Below are positions 39,690-53,453 of a DNA stretch of 53,453 nucleotides, piece by piece. Under the pieces are notes generated by a model. The model did not search any database. It was not told the DNA's origin and worked only from the letters and a program-made list of their open reading frames with translations. Source of the stretch: Escherichia virus TH37; sequence record MT446409.1. The stretch is one strand, 5' to 3'. How positions within the stretch are numbered: position 1 is the stretch's first letter; every line of letters begins with the position of its first letter. Both the position numbers and the translations under genes were made by a program.

Positions 39690-39719
39690 AAGGACTCCAG
39701 TGTTGCGGGTTATTAAAGC

Positions 39720-39815
39720 TGGTGGACAAGGTTGGATTCGAACCAACGACACATCTGTCGAACAGATTGCTCTACCTGACTAAGCTCTGGAGCAGACCTT
39801 CTGAGCTACTCGTCC
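39720..39815 (-). tRNA. tRNA-like element (anticodon-like loop UCG), atypical: ~21-nt extra segment between acceptor stem and D-arm
   Basis: Minus-sense GGACGAG-TA-...-GCTTAGTCAGGTAGAGC-...GTTGG-TTCGAAT-CCAAC-CTTGTCC-A-CCA: 7-bp acceptor stem, canonical T-arm, encoded CCA, but 96 nt long. Confidence 0.4.
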
Positions 39816-40652
39816 GAATAAGGTGGGTTTTGGTAACGCAGGTTTTCCCGAACTGCGAGGCTTGTAGCAAGACAGCCGCATTACTTTGCGAATGCCAGCA
39901 GGATTGATGGTCCGACCGTCTTTGCTTAGGCAACCTGATTTAATCTACCTTTGTAGATACCATCGGTTAGAGCAGTTTATTTCCATGCCCAGGGCAACTC
40001 ACTTTAGGGTGAATTAGGTTACGCAGTGTAGCTTCGAAGTCGCTGCCACAGGCTTGAGATTCCTGTGTGGAGGGAAATCCAGAGGAGCACTTCCTCAAGG
40101 AGTTACGTTTCACATTGGCATAGCTTCTCACACTAAACCAATTGAAGACATTCCAGTGTGCTCGTCCGTCCTCCGGAAATATCCAACTGCATAATTAAGT
40201 TTGTACTCTGTCACATCCTACACGCGCGCTCTTAGGACTTAAACTGGCTTGCATCGCAGAATACAAATTAATTATTGCTCCGATTTATTAATCACATCTC
40301 GAAGCCACAATGCGCCAAATTTGGTTACATGGGATTGGAAGACCACGGAGAGGACTTAAATTTAATTAAGCCGCAACTCGCATTTCAGAATCATTTGCAT
40401 TTATTTTAAATGAATAAAACAGTCGCAATAACTTCAGGCAGTTTAGGCCCGTCGTAAGACTCAGAAAACTACTTCAATTTGTACACAACAAATTTCCCAA
40501 CATTGACCTCCGTCGAAGTCTCATGCGATGGTGTTTGGGTTATGCACAAATTGAAGCCCACTCACTCGGAATGGGATTCAAGGCAGCACCGGAAATCTTC
40601 CAGTGCGTGCCAGATCGATTTAGCTTAGCTTCTCAAGTTTGCTCTTGGCAAC

Positions 40653-41068: not shown

Positions 41069-41084
41069 TCACATCCAATTAATG
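41069..41084 (-). promoter_or_regulatory. Conserved phage promoter-like motif, copy 2
   Basis: Plus TCACATCCAATTAATG. Confidence 0.5.
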
Positions 41085-42081: not shown

Positions 42082-42386
42082 AATGAAACTCCATAAACTT
42101 CTTGGTTAGTTGTCCACTCGCGAGTTGCAATTTGCATGGACTTGTTTGGGCCGTGGTAGAAGGCGTTTTTAATTCGTTCTAGCGTAAGTGGGAAGCTGGT
42201 TTTAAGAATATCATTAACACCAAAATTGGTCCAAAACCCACTCTCGGTTGCTGGTGAAAAGGCCATATTGGATGAACCATTATAGTACCACATACCACCA
42301 ATAAGGACAAAGTGTCTGGAAATCACCCTGTCCCCATCAACCACATTTCTCAACGTCAAAACTTTAGCAGAATGCTTGCGAATCAT
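42078..42386 (-). CDS. Hypothetical protein
   Basis: 102 aa, 4-nt overlap with neighbours. Confidence 0.35.
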   Translation of the reverse strand: MIRKHSAKVLTLRNVVDGDRVISRHFVLIGGMWYYNGSSNMAFSPATESGFWTNFGVNDILKTSFPLTLERIKNAFYHGPNKSMQIATREWTTNQEVYGVSF

Positions 42387-42586
42387 TTCTGCAACTCCTT
42401 AATTTTGGCAATCAAGTCGCGCATGATTTTAGGACCAATAGCTAAGTCACCAGTCATATCATAAAGGTCACTGCCTATTGCTTCTGCATTATTCTCCCAA
42501 CCTTCAACAAGTTCTAACAATTCTTCAATTGTGTAGCCCTTAAACTGAAAGTTTTTGTGATTAATTGCACCGTATTTTTGAACCAT
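42383..42586 (-). CDS. Hypothetical protein
   Basis: 67 aa. Confidence 0.35.
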   Translation of the reverse strand: MVQKYGAINHKNFQFKGYTIEELLELVEGWENNAEAIGSDLYDMTGDLAIGPKIMRDLIAKIKELQK

Positions 42587-42660
42587 AGGAACTCTCCAAT
42601 TTTCGATTCAGTGTTTGTGACTTCTCTTCTCATCTTTTGGCCCAGGAAACAGGCCACAGG

Positions 42661-42688
42661 GTTGCGAAAATGGCCCTATTTTTAGGGC
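42661..42688 (-). terminator. Rho-independent terminator-like hairpin
   Basis: Perfect 7-bp GC-rich stem GGCCCTA/TAGGGCC with 4-nt loop, followed on minus strand by ATTTTCGC. Confidence 0.45.
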
Positions 42689-43237
42689 CGTAGCCCAACC
42701 GTTTGTGTCAATTCTGGATAACTGCATTGGCGAAGGGTTACTCCCGTTAGGGTGCGACCTGCGTATCATAACTGCGCCGCAGCCTGGCAAGCTACGGAGG
42801 TCACAGAGGCTTTGTAACCCTTCCCAATACATTCACCCAAATCCCAGCGTTGGCATAGCTGGTGGCTTGGTTTTGTGCGGATTATGCCACTCTAAGCCCT
42901 GTTTGTCCGACTTCCTCGGAGCACCAGCAGCTTGTGGCACAAACCTATTTTCGAATGACAAGCATACAGATGAGTCTGCCGCATCACGGCTCCTGCTGTT
43001 CTATTGGCCCCAAAAGCCTCAGTATCTTGTACCAATTCATCCCAATACATACACAACTATATACAATAGCGAACTATCTGCGAATAAGTATTCTGGCCCT
43101 ATGGCCTAAGTTAAAGTTAATAGTGTGTGATGGAAACATTCCATCGAAAATAACTTTGTAGAATGAGTCGAACATTCTCGCACGATGCGGCCGCAACGGT
43201 CTACCGAGTTACAAAGTTATTATCTGATGTTGTTTCT

Positions 43238-43253
43238 TCAATTCCAACTAATG
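43238..43253 (-). promoter_or_regulatory. Conserved phage promoter-like motif, copy 3
   Basis: Plus TCAATTCCAACTAATG. Confidence 0.45.
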
Positions 43254-43323
43254 TTTCAGAATTATTCCAATATTCCAAACAAAAAGAATAATAAGAATAA
43301 ATTAAAATAAATGAAGAAAGTGC

Positions 43324-43353
43324 TTGACACCCATTTGGCGATAGGTGTATAAT
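43324..43353 (+). promoter_or_regulatory. Near-consensus sigma70-type promoter on the antisense (plus) strand
   Basis: TTGACA at 43324-43329, 18-nt spacer, TATAAT at 43348-43353. Confidence 0.4.
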
Positions 43354-43378
43354 GCCTTTCTTCCCTAAGTGGTCAGAA

Positions 43379-43394
43379 TCAAATCCCACTAATG
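43379..43394 (-). promoter_or_regulatory. Conserved phage promoter-like motif, copy 4
   Basis: Plus TCAAATCCCACTAATG. Confidence 0.45.
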
Positions 43395-43464
43395 TTTCAG
43401 ACTAAAGCCGAAGGCCAATGCGAGTACAAAACCCGCTTGGCACTTCGAAGAAACCCGCCTGGAA

Positions 43465-43701
43465 CTACAGTGCTTTCCAATCTGAGTCAAACAGTTCCTT
43501 TGGTCTTGAATAAATTATCGAATCAACACCAAAGAAGGTATGACTTCCATACTTCTTAACTTCCTGGTACGCAAACCCATCCACCCAATTACCGCAGTGG
43601 GTTTTAATCTTTGTAGCAAACAGGATTCGATAGTAGTGGCCGCGTGGCTGGTGGAAGAGAATATCTTCTGGCTTGATTGAGTTAATATTTAAATCACACA
43701 T
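43465..43701 (-). CDS. Hypothetical small protein
   Basis: 78 aa co-oriented ORF. Confidence 0.35.
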   Translation of the reverse strand: MCDLNINSIKPEDILFHQPRGHYYRILFATKIKTHCGNWVDGFAYQEVKKYGSHTFFGVDSIIYSRPKELFDSDWKAL

Positions 43702-44254: not shown

Positions 44255-44764
44255 CTAGATTTTGTTTATGTATGCAAACTCGCCATGATACCTGAGTGCA
44301 GCAGCATTGTACGCCCTTGCCGCATCTTCTGGAGTATTGAAAGTGCCAAGGCATCTTCTTACACCATTCTCGGATATTCTGGCAACGTACTTGCCTCTAC
44401 TGCTTTTGTGGACACCTTTGTATCCAGAGGTGTTGGAGGTCGACACTCCTACGTTCATCAAGTTTTGTTTTGCAGACACATCACGAAGATTCTCAATTCT
44501 GTTGTTAAGGATATTCCTATCAACATGGTCTATAATCTTTGGGATATACCCATGATGTAGCCAGAATACTATCTGGTGAGCTTTCCATTTTGTACCTTCG
44601 ACAGATACTCTTAAGTACCCATCACTACACACATACCCAGCAACGTCTCCCGTACGAGCTTTTGGGCTAGTGGTTTGGGTTCGAATAAGGTTGCCCGTTT
44701 CTGGGCAATACCTTAAATATTTATCGAACCTTGGATTATTTCGGGAGTTCGAAATGAGGTGCAT
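44255..44764 (-). CDS. HNH-AP2 homing endonuclease
   Basis: 169 aa; HNH_3-like GYLRV...HQIVFWLHHG...IDHVDRN and AP2-like GYKGVHK...GKYVARI...GTFNTPEDAARAYN. Confidence 0.65.
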   Translation of the reverse strand: MHLISNSRNNPRFDKYLRYCPETGNLIRTQTTSPKARTGDVAGYVCSDGYLRVSVEGTKWKAHQIVFWLHHGYIPKIIDHVDRNILNNRIENLRDVSAKQNLMNVGVSTSNTSGYKGVHKSSRGKYVARISENGVRRCLGTFNTPEDAARAYNAAALRYHGEFAYINKI

Positions 44765-52012: not shown

Positions 52013-53453
52013 TTATTGACAGAAGTAGTAAGCGTGTTCGCTCATCAGAAGCTCTTCAGTAACAATGTTCTCATGGTACATGTTGATGCCACCAAGTTGC
52101 TTAGACAGAGATTCAAACTGATTATTGTGAACAAAGATTTCAACATAAGCAGAACGAATTACTTCCATCATTTTAGGAGCATCAGCTAAGCAGCAACGGA
52201 AACAATCGTGAATTGAAGTAAAGCCACGAAGACCAGCTTCTTTAGCTTTGACTGCAACAGTACGAGCAACCAATGCGTCAATACCTTGAATGTAGTTAAC
52301 AACGAAGGTACGCTTGAATTCTTCTTTAGTTGGGTTGGACTCACGAATGGTCCAAGGCTTATTCTCCTGAATCTGACCAAAGATAACACGAGTTTGAGAG
52401 TCAACACGAATGCTGAATGCCTCACAGATTTCACGAGATGGGAAGCAAGGCTTCATTACAACCTGACCATCAGTGTGACGATATGTGATGTACTCTTTAC
52501 CAAGTTCAACACAACGATTGTATGCAGCATCAGCAGCTTTCTCGATGAACATGTTAATCTTAGCACCCAATGCGTTATGGATTGCTTCTACACAAAGTTC
52601 AGCAAATGCTTCTGCTTTCTCAACAGGAATCTGGAGAGATGCTGTCATGTATGCAATGAAGTCAGAAGAACCAGTTAATGCAGCTTTACCACCACCATAT
52701 TGGATAGCCATGTATGGAGTTTTGATAAACTTACGACCAGCTTTCGGATTCAAGAATTCATCCATGATTTCAGCAGATGGTTTCATTGAAGAACGGTCAA
52801 GCAACTTCAACAGTTCACGAAGAGATAACTGGTATGGGTCAGATGCTTTAGTTGATGAATCAACCAGACCTGTTGCACGAGCCATCTCCATGTTACCAGC
52901 AATGAATGCCAGATATTGAGTACCAGAACATTTAGCATCTAAGCCAAAGCCTACACGAGAATCGCATTCACCTGTAGTCTCAAACTTGAACCAATCCAGA
53001 GCCAGACGAACATAAGTGAATGGCTTAGAAGGACGTTCAGCTTTAGGCATGTTCATCATGCGAGCAAGTGAACCAGCTGGATTCTGAGCAACATAAGTTA
53101 AACGCTTAGCAGAAGTCCAGTCTCCACCGGAAATATCTTCCAGCTCTGCCATAAACATGTTGTATGCAATGGTAGTAGAACCATCTTCGTTAAACTTCTT
53201 AACGATGTTCTCAACATTGTGAGAATACAAGCAACGAGCAAAGTCAGATGATTGTGGGTTAGGACCAGCACATGCTACATGGTACAGACGACCACGGTTA
53301 TCAGCAAAGTAGTCAGAGAACAGAGTGTCCTGACCAACCATTGCTACAGCATTGTTCCAAACATGGAGTTCAGTCTGGATTGCTTCTGGCATCTGCAAGC
53401 CACCATAAGTACGTTGTTCAATCATAGACTGGATGATGCGAACCATCTCAGTC
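52013..53453 (-). CDS. T7-like single-subunit RNA polymerase, C-terminal part (N-terminus beyond the window end; matches 1-1217 across the repeat)
   Basis: DNRGRLYHV, motif A-like GLDAKCSGTQYLAF, motif B-like KTPYMAIQYGGGK, motif C IHDCFRCC collinear with T7 RNAP DWRGRVYAV / DGSCSGIQHF / MTLAYGS / IHDSFGT. Confidence 0.85.
   Translation of the reverse strand, partial: TEMVRIIQSMIEQRTYGGLQMPEAIQTELHVWNNAVAMVGQDTLFSDYFADNRGRLYHVACAGPNPQSSDFARCLYSHNVENIVKKFNEDGSTTIAYNMFMAELEDISGGDWTSAKRLTYVAQNPAGSLARMMNMPKAERPSKPFTYVRLALDWFKFETTGECDSRVGFGLDAKCSGTQYLAFIAGNMEMARATGLVDSSTKASDPYQLSLRELLKLLDRSSMKPSAEIMDEFLNPKAGRKFIKTPYMAIQYGGGKAALTGSSDFIAYMTASLQIPVEKAEAFAELCVEAIHNALGAKINMFIEKAADAAYNRCVELGKEYITYRHTDGQVVMKPCFPSREICEAFSIRVDSQTRVIFGQIQENKPWTIRESNPTKEEFKRTFVVNYIQGIDALVARTVAVKAKEAGLRGFTSIHDCFRCCLADAPKMMEVIRSAYVEIFVHNNQFESLSKQLGGINMYHENIVTEELLMSEHAYYFCQ

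Follow-up and report, generated by a model that had tools for sequence, protein, structure and literature searches.

The boundary between early and middle genes in phage T7 combines the early terminator TE, the tandem promoters phi1.1A and phi1.1B with the AT-rich primary origin, and processing hairpins for RNase III. RNA II and RNA I of ColE1 set a structured RNA beside an origin against a strong opposing promoter. GOLLD and ROOL are multi-domain, covariation-supported RNAs of several hundred nucleotides (nt) in phages with tRNA or tRNA-like genes. The present analysis concerns a locus that resembles each of these in part: an island at positions 42587-43464 of a 53,453-nt stretch of Escherichia virus TH37 DNA (MT446409.1; this whole stretch is hereafter the window). 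Comparison with related phages makes it very probable that the island encodes a structured RNA read in the direction of the genes. As a whole, the island is composite, with a promoter hub of ~230 bp (43240-43464), conserved partly at the DNA level, and a structured RNA of ~634 nt.

Chaseviridae relatives of the window are myoviruses with a gene for a T7-like single-subunit RNA polymerase. The likeness to T7 extends to tandem promoters and an AT block that follow the anti-restriction and early genes at ~15-20% of the genome, to long imperfect hairpins in the transcripts, and to promoter copies that flank small inserted cassettes. T7, however, has single processing hairpins of ~60 nt where this locus has a 634-nt array of six covarying domains, and it has no backward consensus sigma70 promoter at the boundary; the two loci share no sequence similarity. 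The likeness to ColE1 lies in a structured RNA of ~550-600 nt by a candidate origin, opposed by a strong sigma70 promoter. In contrast to ColE1, the antisense promoter here lies upstream of P5, the putative phage promoter of the structured RNA, and its transcript is not complementary to that RNA; it overlaps only the first ~25 nt of transcripts from a second putative phage promoter, P4, and the upstream gene. The sense RNA here would come from the phage polymerase. The island RNA shares its size range, multi-domain build, covariation and type of phage with GOLLD and ROOL, but matches neither covariance model, looks like a series of independent replaceable hairpins rather than one ornate fold, and is confined to one phage clade.

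Comparative evidence for a structured RNA

By its sequence, the window is a Carltongylesvirus genome (phiEcoM-GJ1-like, Chaseviridae), and all of its genes lie on the minus strand, here called the gene strand. About 50 GenBank phage records are ~80-95% identical to it across 1.3 kb around the island, including phiEcoM-GJ1, ST32, SA91KD, Mangalitsa, MLP1 and the Yersinia PYps phages; all are Chaseviridae, mostly Carltongylesvirus. These relatives define the following element.

42603-43236, minus strand: structured RNA of 634 nt in six domains (D1-D6), downstream of P5 and identified by RNAalifold covariation

The original prediction, made from the letters of the window, placed a candidate phage non-coding RNA (ncRNA) here and proposed aligning related phages in search of compensatory changes. 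Such changes are abundant. In an alignment of 26 close relatives with a mean column identity of 84%, the RNAalifold consensus holds 160 pairs, 30 of which show compensatory double changes, and an independent count finds 98.9% of cells in standard pairs. Shuffled alignments give 17.3±2.2 pairs changed on both sides, and none of 500 shuffles reaches the observed 30. Related sequences can exceed shuffles without any structure, which makes controls with the pairing partners slid by 1-3 columns the stronger comparison; these controls give only 4-6 such pairs, and their paired cells drop to 36-44%. The covariation score behaves likewise (0.148 observed, 0.080 shuffled, 0.015-0.038 slid). Versions from 4HA13 (Sabourvirus), Faunus (Faunusvirus), phiA050 and phiEcoM-GJ1 barely align, yet fold alone into the same shapes; those of 4HA13, Faunus and phiA050 keep the shapes of D1, D3 and D5 with different sequences.

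The minimum free energy (MFE) z-score is -4.4 for the structured RNA against -2.1 for a coding control of equal length. The opposite strand also scores about -4.4, and the z-score therefore does not identify the strand. The kinds of substitution favour the gene strand as the functional molecule. Among the 94 pairs predicted on both strands, G.U cells number 54 against 13 A.C cells, and the frequent one-sided changes (C or U opposite G, A or G opposite U) keep pairing in the gene-strand RNA only. The interior had also been described as GC-richer with several stems, and GC content is indeed 0.51-0.53 at 42600-42999, as against ~0.41 in the flanks and 0.31-0.34 at 43100-43399; the stems in this interior are real.

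A reading without any RNA would make the island a decayed gene, a mobile-element remnant (an intron or homing-endonuclease landing pad) or a set of protein-bound DNA palindromes, with its apparent structure arising from recombination mosaics. Variation within the island RNA does run in block-wise mosaics, several conserved motifs are DNA palindromes, and both strands have similar folding z-scores. Homing-endonuclease ORFs (open reading frames) are inserted in phiEcoM-GJ1 (gp24) and in one metagenomic relative, and an HNH-AP2 gene lies 800 bp away. This reading nevertheless has to meet compensatory changes inside otherwise conserved helices and between genera of unalignable sequence, one-sided changes that pass through G.U in the gene-strand sense, and the loss of pairing in the slid controls. 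No reading frame survives in the relatives, no Intron_gpI or other ribozyme model matches, and no host gene is split. We consider it very improbable. A structured, non-coding RNA is favoured because of the compensatory changes, the same fold in divergent genera and the lack of a conserved ORF.

No conserved protein in the island

The island is bounded by an upstream gene at 43465-43701 (stop at 43465) and a downstream gene at 42383-42586 (start at 42586). The longest ORFs within 42587-43464 encode 134 and 99 aa on the plus strand and 74 aa on the minus strand. No ORF of the island is conserved across ~29 relatives: the 134-aa frame is down to 46-62 aa in most of them, stops or frameshifts interrupt the 74-aa frame in about half, and indels have lengths that are not multiples of three. 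Pfam and PHROGs hold no match for any island ORF. A protein-coding reading of the three frames is thus rejected: in about half of the relatives, if not more, a stop or frameshift breaks them, and they lack Pfam or PHROG matches. The earlier statement that no convincing ORF lies between 42586 and 43465 extends to the relatives. Careful annotations (SA91KD, Faunus, EcoM1, JL1, SKA49, MLP1) leave 0.86-1.1 kb empty at the island, and automatic annotations place small ORFs there at inconsistent positions.

A conserved protein across this interval in related phages had been named as the finding that would speak against an ncRNA. phiEcoM-GJ1 does carry an ORF inside the interval, gp24 (1869-2270 of its locus sequence), which replaces D4-D5. 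The annotation of gp24 reads 'putative exonuclease SbcC', but its match is to phrog_2340, a family of phage endonucleases, and it shows an HNH-like CxxC...HH motif; the gene is a misnamed endonuclease insertion and not a conserved protein of the interval. A group I intron carrying a homing endonuclease is rejected as well: Intron_gpI does not match, the flanking genes are complete and separate, and the endonuclease ORF occurs in phiEcoM-GJ1 only.

The window itself carries an HNH_3 plus AP2 homing-endonuclease gene at 44255-44764 on the minus strand, two genes upstream of the island, and the island neighbourhood as a whole is a hotspot for endonuclease insertion. Several records (among PP952070, MW147598-MW147602, OK148439 and PP107930) mislabel the ArdA-like anti-restriction gene as 'tail fiber protein' and call small ORFs inside the RNA. 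One of them, 'Staphylococcus phage Pel53' (PP952070), has the same island in a Carltongylesvirus-like genome, an oddity given the Staphylococcus host.

Domain organization

The elements of the RNA, from its 5' end to the start of the next gene, are as follows.

43129-43236, minus strand: D1, an invariant basal stem, a covarying stem of ~17 bp and a variable tip (compensatory changes in helices 2, 3 and 5)
43160-43178, minus strand: T-arm mimic within D1, AGAAUG-UUCGACU-CAUUCU, with a 7-nt T-loop closed by G-C (pair 70/80 covaries)
43095-43106, minus strand: hairpin h1, GGCC-AUAG-GGCC (helix 7, invariant and thus neither for nor against structure)
42951-43035, minus strand: D2, a branched hairpin in two alternative sequence versions (helices 11 and 12, 5 compensatory pairs)
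42879-42945, minus strand: D3, a long irregular hairpin with a G(G/A)AAG pentaloop as its cap (six divergent versions, same fold)
42843-42865, minus strand: D4, a short hairpin CCAGC...GCUGG (helix 18, invariant in the close group; a tentative assignment)
42713-42841, minus strand: D5, a closing helix of ~28 bp around insert V1 and a CCC-UAAC-GGG hairpin (helices 19-21)
42660-42700, minus strand: D6, a long stem-loop that contains the hairpin at 42661-42688 (covarying outer stem)
42638-42656, minus strand: hairpin h7, UGGCC-loop-GGCCA, then a purine-rich single-stranded tract (helix 24; no U-run after it)
42584-42603, minus strand: end of the leader, with the ribosome-binding site (RBS, GGAGAG) and ATG of the next gene at 42383-42586 (kept in all relatives)

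D1 starts ~10 nt after P5. Its base pairs GAAACA.ACAUC with GAUG...UGUUUC, and all 20 distinct versions of the domain fold alone to the same shape. The 3' element GAUGGAAUGUUUCCAUC can also form a local 7-bp hairpin, and both pairing options are fully conserved. In the window, the D1 tip is a four-way junction of a T-arm, a GG-containing D-like loop and a short middle hairpin, which together resemble a tRNA cloverleaf. Next to the loop-closing G-C of the T-arm, pair 70/80 of alignment A1 is UA in 11 sequences, CG in 8 and GC in 4. Two other tRNA-like tips occur in BSBP01 and MLP1, Faunus and Pel53 share a tip type unrelated to these, phiA050 has another unrelated tip, and four metagenomic loci carry a plain 9-bp hairpin. 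The tRNA-like tip is lacking in Faunus, Pel53, phiA050 and the four metagenomic loci, and tRNA mimicry is therefore optional.

The other domains vary in the same manner. The inner hairpin of D2 is GCCG-UGAUG-CGGC here and GACG-UGAUG-CGUC in Faunus, and four of the five pairs in the apical stem of D3 show compensatory changes. A string that invited an RNase P-like reading, 'GAGGAAGUCGGAC', is the loop and 3' arm of a local covarying hairpin, and that reading is rejected. The long helix of D5 is kept with different sequences in MLP1, phiA050, 4HA13 and Faunus; its V1 insert (42756-42802) is hypervariable and branched, with at least five versions. In D6, the outer stem changes from GGUUG/CAACC to GGUAG/CUACC, and pair 571/605 is AU in 20 sequences and UA in 6. 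No repeats were found within the island RNA. Judged by these sequences, D1-D6 appear to be largely independent modules that tolerate insertion and replacement.

At least six unrelated D1 tips and at least five V1 versions exist among phages otherwise ~85-90% identical. This diversity bears on a second reading of the locus, in which a phage ncRNA of ~0.6 kb is released from the leader and acts in trans as a decoy, sponge or scaffold. Candidate partners would be a host RNA-binding factor, a nuclease or an RNA-targeting defence, bound through a tRNA-elbow mimic and long stems, with the hypervariable D1 tip and D5 V1 proposed as specificity or arms-race modules. The canonical T-arm and the GG-containing D-like loop of D1 suit such a role, as do the position of the RNA beside an anti-restriction gene in the early host-takeover region, a conservation far above that of the neighbouring proteins, and the paralogous second long-stem module that some relatives carry behind an extra promoter copy. 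The scattered absence of the tRNA-like tip, by contrast, indicates that tRNA mimicry is not the core function, and the RNA is unlike known decoy RNAs in having no Rfam match, no repeats and no enrichment of GGA motifs. A trans-acting role is possible but doubtful.

Described RNA families

In the searches made, no described RNA family proved related to the island RNA, which appears to be undescribed so far. Rfam 15 at gathering thresholds gives no match anywhere in the window. At E<=10, the interval 42400-43600 returns only noise far below thresholds (snoU18, SdsR_RyeB, HSR-omega_2), and at E<=5 nine related loci return nothing inside the island RNA. The covariance-model search against large ncRNA families that had been suggested for this locus thus yields no match to any family, GOLLD and ROOL included, and the same result removes tRNA, tmRNA, 6S, RNase P, Intron_gpI and CsrB. 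A CsrB-like sponge is also rejected on GGA motif counts (8 observed, 11±3 expected). ARAGORN finds no tRNA in the window or in 25 related loci. A true tRNA or tmRNA in D1 is rejected on that result, on a closed 'acceptor' stem of at least 11-17 bp, and on a middle arm with a 4-nt loop or a 7-nt loop without U33.

The nearest likeness to D1 is YrlA, a bacterial Y RNA: both are modules of ~110 nt in which a tRNA-like domain, with a canonical T-arm and a D-like loop, sits on a long stem (Chen et al. 2014, PMC4201824). YrlA has its long stem where a tRNA has the anticodon stem, and between its T and D arms sits a closed 'acceptor' stem-loop; its Ro-binding stem carries GNCGAAN0-1G (PMC4201824). 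The long stem of D1 instead continues the T-stem, in the acceptor position, and the tRNA-like tip is optional in the island RNA family. A regular-expression search for GNCGAAN0-1G is negative in all seven D1 versions tested, and no Ro60 (Rsr/TROVE) gene occurs in the complete phiEcoM-GJ1 annotation or among the neighbours of the island. The search at E<=10 gave no Rfam family on the island, the presence of a YrlA model in Rfam 15 being unconfirmed. Topology, motif and Rsr linkage all fail, and a YrlA or bacterial Y RNA is rejected.

A predicted promoter hub

The hub lies between the upstream gene and D1 and holds these elements on either side of a host promoter described below.

43405-43450, minus strand: hairpin, probable terminator or processing hairpin of the early (ArdA-like) operon (MFE -29.1 kcal/mol, z -4.0)
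43384-43400, minus strand: P4, putative phage-RNA-polymerase promoter, copy 1, pointing into the island (exact CTGAAACATTAGTKGGA match)
43261-43300, no strand assigned: AT-rich block in which GAATAA/TTATTC is repeated inverted and TGGAATA in tandem; a candidate element for protein binding or DNA unwinding (from sequence)
43243-43259, minus strand: P5, second copy of the putative phage-RNA-polymerase promoter, from which the structured RNA would be transcribed (exact CTGAAACATTAGTKGGA match)

The hairpin at 43405-43450 sits just after the stop codon of the upstream gene and has only three U after its stem; the SA91KD annotation places a rho-independent terminator at the homologous site. P4 and P5 are the two promoter-motif copies originally seen to point into the island, now placed as exact matches. 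The 17-nt motif CTGAAACATTAGTKGGA has only four matches in the window at three or fewer mismatches, against 0.39 expected, and all four are on the gene strand. Both sites are annotated as 'putative phage promoter 4/5' in phiEcoM-GJ1 and SA91KD.

P5 is present in every relative examined; at the P4 position, 4HA13 and Faunus show no recognisable copy. Of 30 relatives, about 17 have P5 two or three times, with the copies on either side of inserted cassettes; SA91KD, ST32, JL1, TH26/TH25 and Mangalitsa are among them. The cassettes hold a Zn-ribbon-like ORF of ~58 aa, a different ORF of ~70 aa, or a non-coding long-stem module of ~125 nt with a tip like that of D1 in phiA050. Such moron-like duplication around cassettes, as read from these sequences, is the behaviour expected of a real promoter. 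Elsewhere in the genome, predicted promoters have short leaders and nothing comparable to the P5 structured RNA, and the long structure is therefore specific to the P5 site. D1 as a general promoter-proximal 5' stabiliser is rejected on the same observation. The apparent homologue of the island in Pectobacterium phage PP101 is rejected too, its match being the promoter motif alone, upstream of a different gene.

TGGAAT occurs four times within 135 nt on the gene strand. The combination of repeat and P5, TTTGGAATATTGGAATAAT-N4-AACATTAGTTGGA, is invariant across four genera, though the neighbouring protein is only 34-36% identical. One metagenomic variant is without the AT repeat; in L060, a metagenomic locus, the AT-rich repeat block has given way to a different ORF. 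The 18-mer TTGGAATATTGGAATAAT also occurs in AT-rich IMG/VR viral contigs of an unrelated kind (L018, L022, L023, L024), with inverted copies ATTCCAATATTCCAA ~100 bp upstream that flank a promoter-like stretch; this may be a shared protein-binding motif or a coincidence.

These features also suit a T7-type replication origin, a reading that does not exclude the RNA. Tandem promoters and an AT block flanked by divergent promoters would open the DNA, P4 transcripts would prime synthesis, and the structured region downstream would be incidental or would aid R-loop or primer formation in the manner of ColE1 RNA II. P4 and P5, 141 bp apart, flank the neighbourhood's most AT-rich stretch (GC 0.31-0.34), the iteron-like inverted and tandem repeats are invariant across genera, and the island sits at ~20% of the genome, after the RNA polymerase gene and before the primase/helicase and DNA polymerase genes. 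The primary origin of T7, with phi1.1A/phi1.1B and an AT-rich segment, counts for this reading. The case is purely architectural, though, and P4 is missing in two genera. In many relatives, cassettes of 120-330 bp part the AT block from the RNA, and the metagenomic variant without the AT repeat tells the same way. Cumulative GC skew has no turning point at the island, and covariation of the G.U type in D1-D6 suggests that selection acts on RNA rather than DNA. That the hub doubles as an origin is unlikely.

A putative back-facing host promoter

Within the hub, a putative host promoter faces the opposite way.

43324-43353, plus strand: sigma70 promoter TTGACA-18-TATAAT, antisense to all genes (12/12 consensus match)
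43327-43348, minus strand: H0, an inverted repeat or hairpin of 6-8 bp that fills the sigma70 spacer (arm complementarity)

The antisense sigma70-like promoter of the original prediction is an exact consensus match, its 18-bp spacer falls within the 16-18 bp usual for sigma70, and no other site in the 53-kb window reaches 11/12 on either strand. An AT-rich stretch lies immediately upstream of its -35 hexamer. Both hexamers are intact in 28 of 28 relatives, including 4HA13, Faunus and Aeromonas phage phiA050, where the neighbouring ArdA-like protein is only 34-36% identical to that of the window; the hexamers are therefore under strong selection. The spacer, in turn, occurs in 10 different versions of 17-18 nt among the same 28. 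The arms of H0 differ between lineages yet remain complementary in 11 of 12 sequence variants, those of 4HA13, Faunus and phiA050 among them, and wobble positions read as G.U in the gene-strand sense. The predicted start lies near 43360, and transcription from it would converge on P4, with start points ~25 bp apart. That the one consensus host promoter opposes all the genes and holds a covarying hairpin between its hexamers is odd enough to call for an explanation of its own.

Probable leader status and proposed processing

The original prediction closed the island with a strong hairpin terminator at 42661-42688. The hairpin exists (GGCCCUA-AAAA-UAGGGCC on the minus strand, a 7-bp stem followed by AUUUUC with four U), but it lies inside the covarying stem of D6, and a terminator scan of the gene strand makes no call there. 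The inner hairpin of D6 has two versions among relatives, and AUUUUC follows in the minority version only; in the majority version, GGCC-CGAUUUUC-GGCC is followed by UUCCUGC, and the U-run lies in the loop. The candidate ncRNA thus stands as a structured, non-coding gene-strand RNA behind phage promoters, and falls as a gene running from promoter to terminator, there being no conserved U-tract. The lack of a conserved terminator also counts against a trans-acting ncRNA. The next promoter-like motif downstream of the island is at 41084, with none between, and the RBS sequence is conserved irrespective of whether the next gene is gp25-like or gp26-like. No conserved terminator and no promoter motif precede the next genes, and the RNA is therefore best read from sequence as the 5' leader of their mRNA, which spans genes from 42586 down to 41115; it is perhaps processed afterwards.

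A sequence of events can be proposed on this basis. Host RNA polymerase on the early (ArdA-like) operon would stop at the hairpin 43405-43450, or its transcript would be processed there. The phage single-subunit RNA polymerase is predicted to start at P5, and in Carltongylesvirus also at P4, as the strand-specific conserved motif suggests. The nascent RNA (42603-43236) would fold into six largely independent stem-loop domains, the structure that the covariation shows, and would serve as the 5' leader of the message for the genes from 42586 to 41115.

Long helices are present at the base and long stem of D1 (~25 bp), in D5 (~28 bp) and in D6. Host RNase III cuts such long helices in T7 transcripts, and a T7-type RNase III site is about two turns of imperfect double-stranded RNA. 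By analogy, RNase III would be expected to cut the long helices and so leave a stable RNA of ~0.6 kb and a defined 5' end on the downstream mRNA. The likeliest role, proposed only tentatively, is one in cis, in setting the stability and amount of the middle-operon message. The sigma70 promoter would send host polymerase back into the early genes early in infection, and P4-started phage polymerase would later overrun it, sharpening the early/middle switch. This composite picture, an early-to-middle boundary with a promoter hub, a long modular structured leader processed by RNase III and an overrun host promoter, stands at about an even chance.

Several points weigh against it. Some conserved motifs are DNA palindromes or repeats (GATGGAA-N3-TTCCATC, TGGAAT and the inverted repeat in the sigma70 spacer), and some of the conservation could concern the DNA itself. 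Where phiEcoM-GJ1 has the endonuclease gene in place of D4-D5, an insertion of 170 nt is found in 4HA13, and this pair of domains appears, given the replacement and the insertion, to be dispensable or modular. The profile by the virus taxonomy committee ICTV states that Chaseviridae promoters have not yet been identified experimentally. The proposed RNase III cleavage is borrowed solely from T7. The RBS is not predicted to be sequestered, and translational control by the leader is not evident. Finally, a 5' stabiliser needs neither 630 nt, nor six domains, nor sequence invariance across genera, and although the gene downstream differs between phages, gp25 being there in some only, the RNA stays the same. 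The size and invariance of the RNA and its independence of the following gene therefore favour a function of the RNA itself over control of one gene.

The independence from the following gene also supports the trans-acting ncRNA. In its strongest form, the locus would define a new RNA class, a modular host-takeover RNA of ~0.6 kb that the phage polymerase would make, that would be cut from the leader to act in trans, and whose production is gated by the back-facing host promoter; this form is improbable. One possibility is a decoy or scaffold whose tRNA-elbow mimic and long double-stranded stems face a host nuclease or an RNA-sensing defence, with swappable hypervariable tips that tune specificity. 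Carltongylesvirus phages plate well at 30 C and poorly at 37 C, and phage Tiny has an efficiency of plating below 0.001 (PMC13340011, PMC6753284). A temperature-sensitive fold that contributes to this 30 C versus 37 C restriction is a related possibility.

Genome context and distribution

In phiEcoM-GJ1 coordinates, the island lies at 10.4-11.6 kb of 53 kb. Upstream on that map are the RNA polymerase gene, small early genes, an endolysin gene and the ArdA-like anti-restriction gene; downstream are the replication genes (primase/helicase, DNA polymerase). Beyond the promoter copies, the island has no paralogue elsewhere in the phage genome. A search of 5,426 E. coli genomes gives no match, which rules out a host origin or prophage copies. 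IMG/VR scans recover already known genomes and one uncultivated viral genome, and nothing else. A metagenome search with the pattern of repeat plus promoter found no locus, and one with GATGGAATGTTTCCATC returned 120 loci, 7 of which are true relatives. The literature search found no paper on the island region or on any transcriptome of Chaseviridae.

Large structured RNAs without a known function are rare, and in phages they have repeatedly led to new biology. This one is tractable, with culturable E. coli phages, small genomes and a defined promoter, and the relatives supply natural 'experiments' in the form of swapped tips, an endonuclease gene that replaces domains, and duplicated modules. 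From this locus come, for the first time, concrete candidates that can be put to the test as Chaseviridae phage promoters, as the early/middle switch and perhaps as a replication origin. Should the RNA prove to be only a processed leader, it would still be a useful annotation, given that many GenBank records call spurious small ORFs here.

Other observations in the window

Positions 1-543 of the window are repeated at 52911-53453 with 98% identity, as terminal redundancy or an assembly overlap; the ICTV profile gives terminal repeats of ~3 kb for the family. Positions 1-1824 hold no minus-strand ORF of 60 aa or more.

A second ORF-free gap lies at 39753-40652 on the minus strand. It is 900 nt long, has a folding z-score of -6.0, and shares conserved stretches with Pectobacterium phage PP101; a further structured RNA of the family may lie there. 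At ~39700-39800 on the same strand is a tRNA-like gene with the acceptor GGACGAG/CTTGTCC followed by ACCA and the T-arm GTTGG-TTCGAAT-CCAAC. It has an insertion of ~23 nt in the D-loop and receives no ARAGORN call, and the phiEcoM-GJ1 annotation at the homologous place reads 'tRNA-Arg, may contain an intron'.

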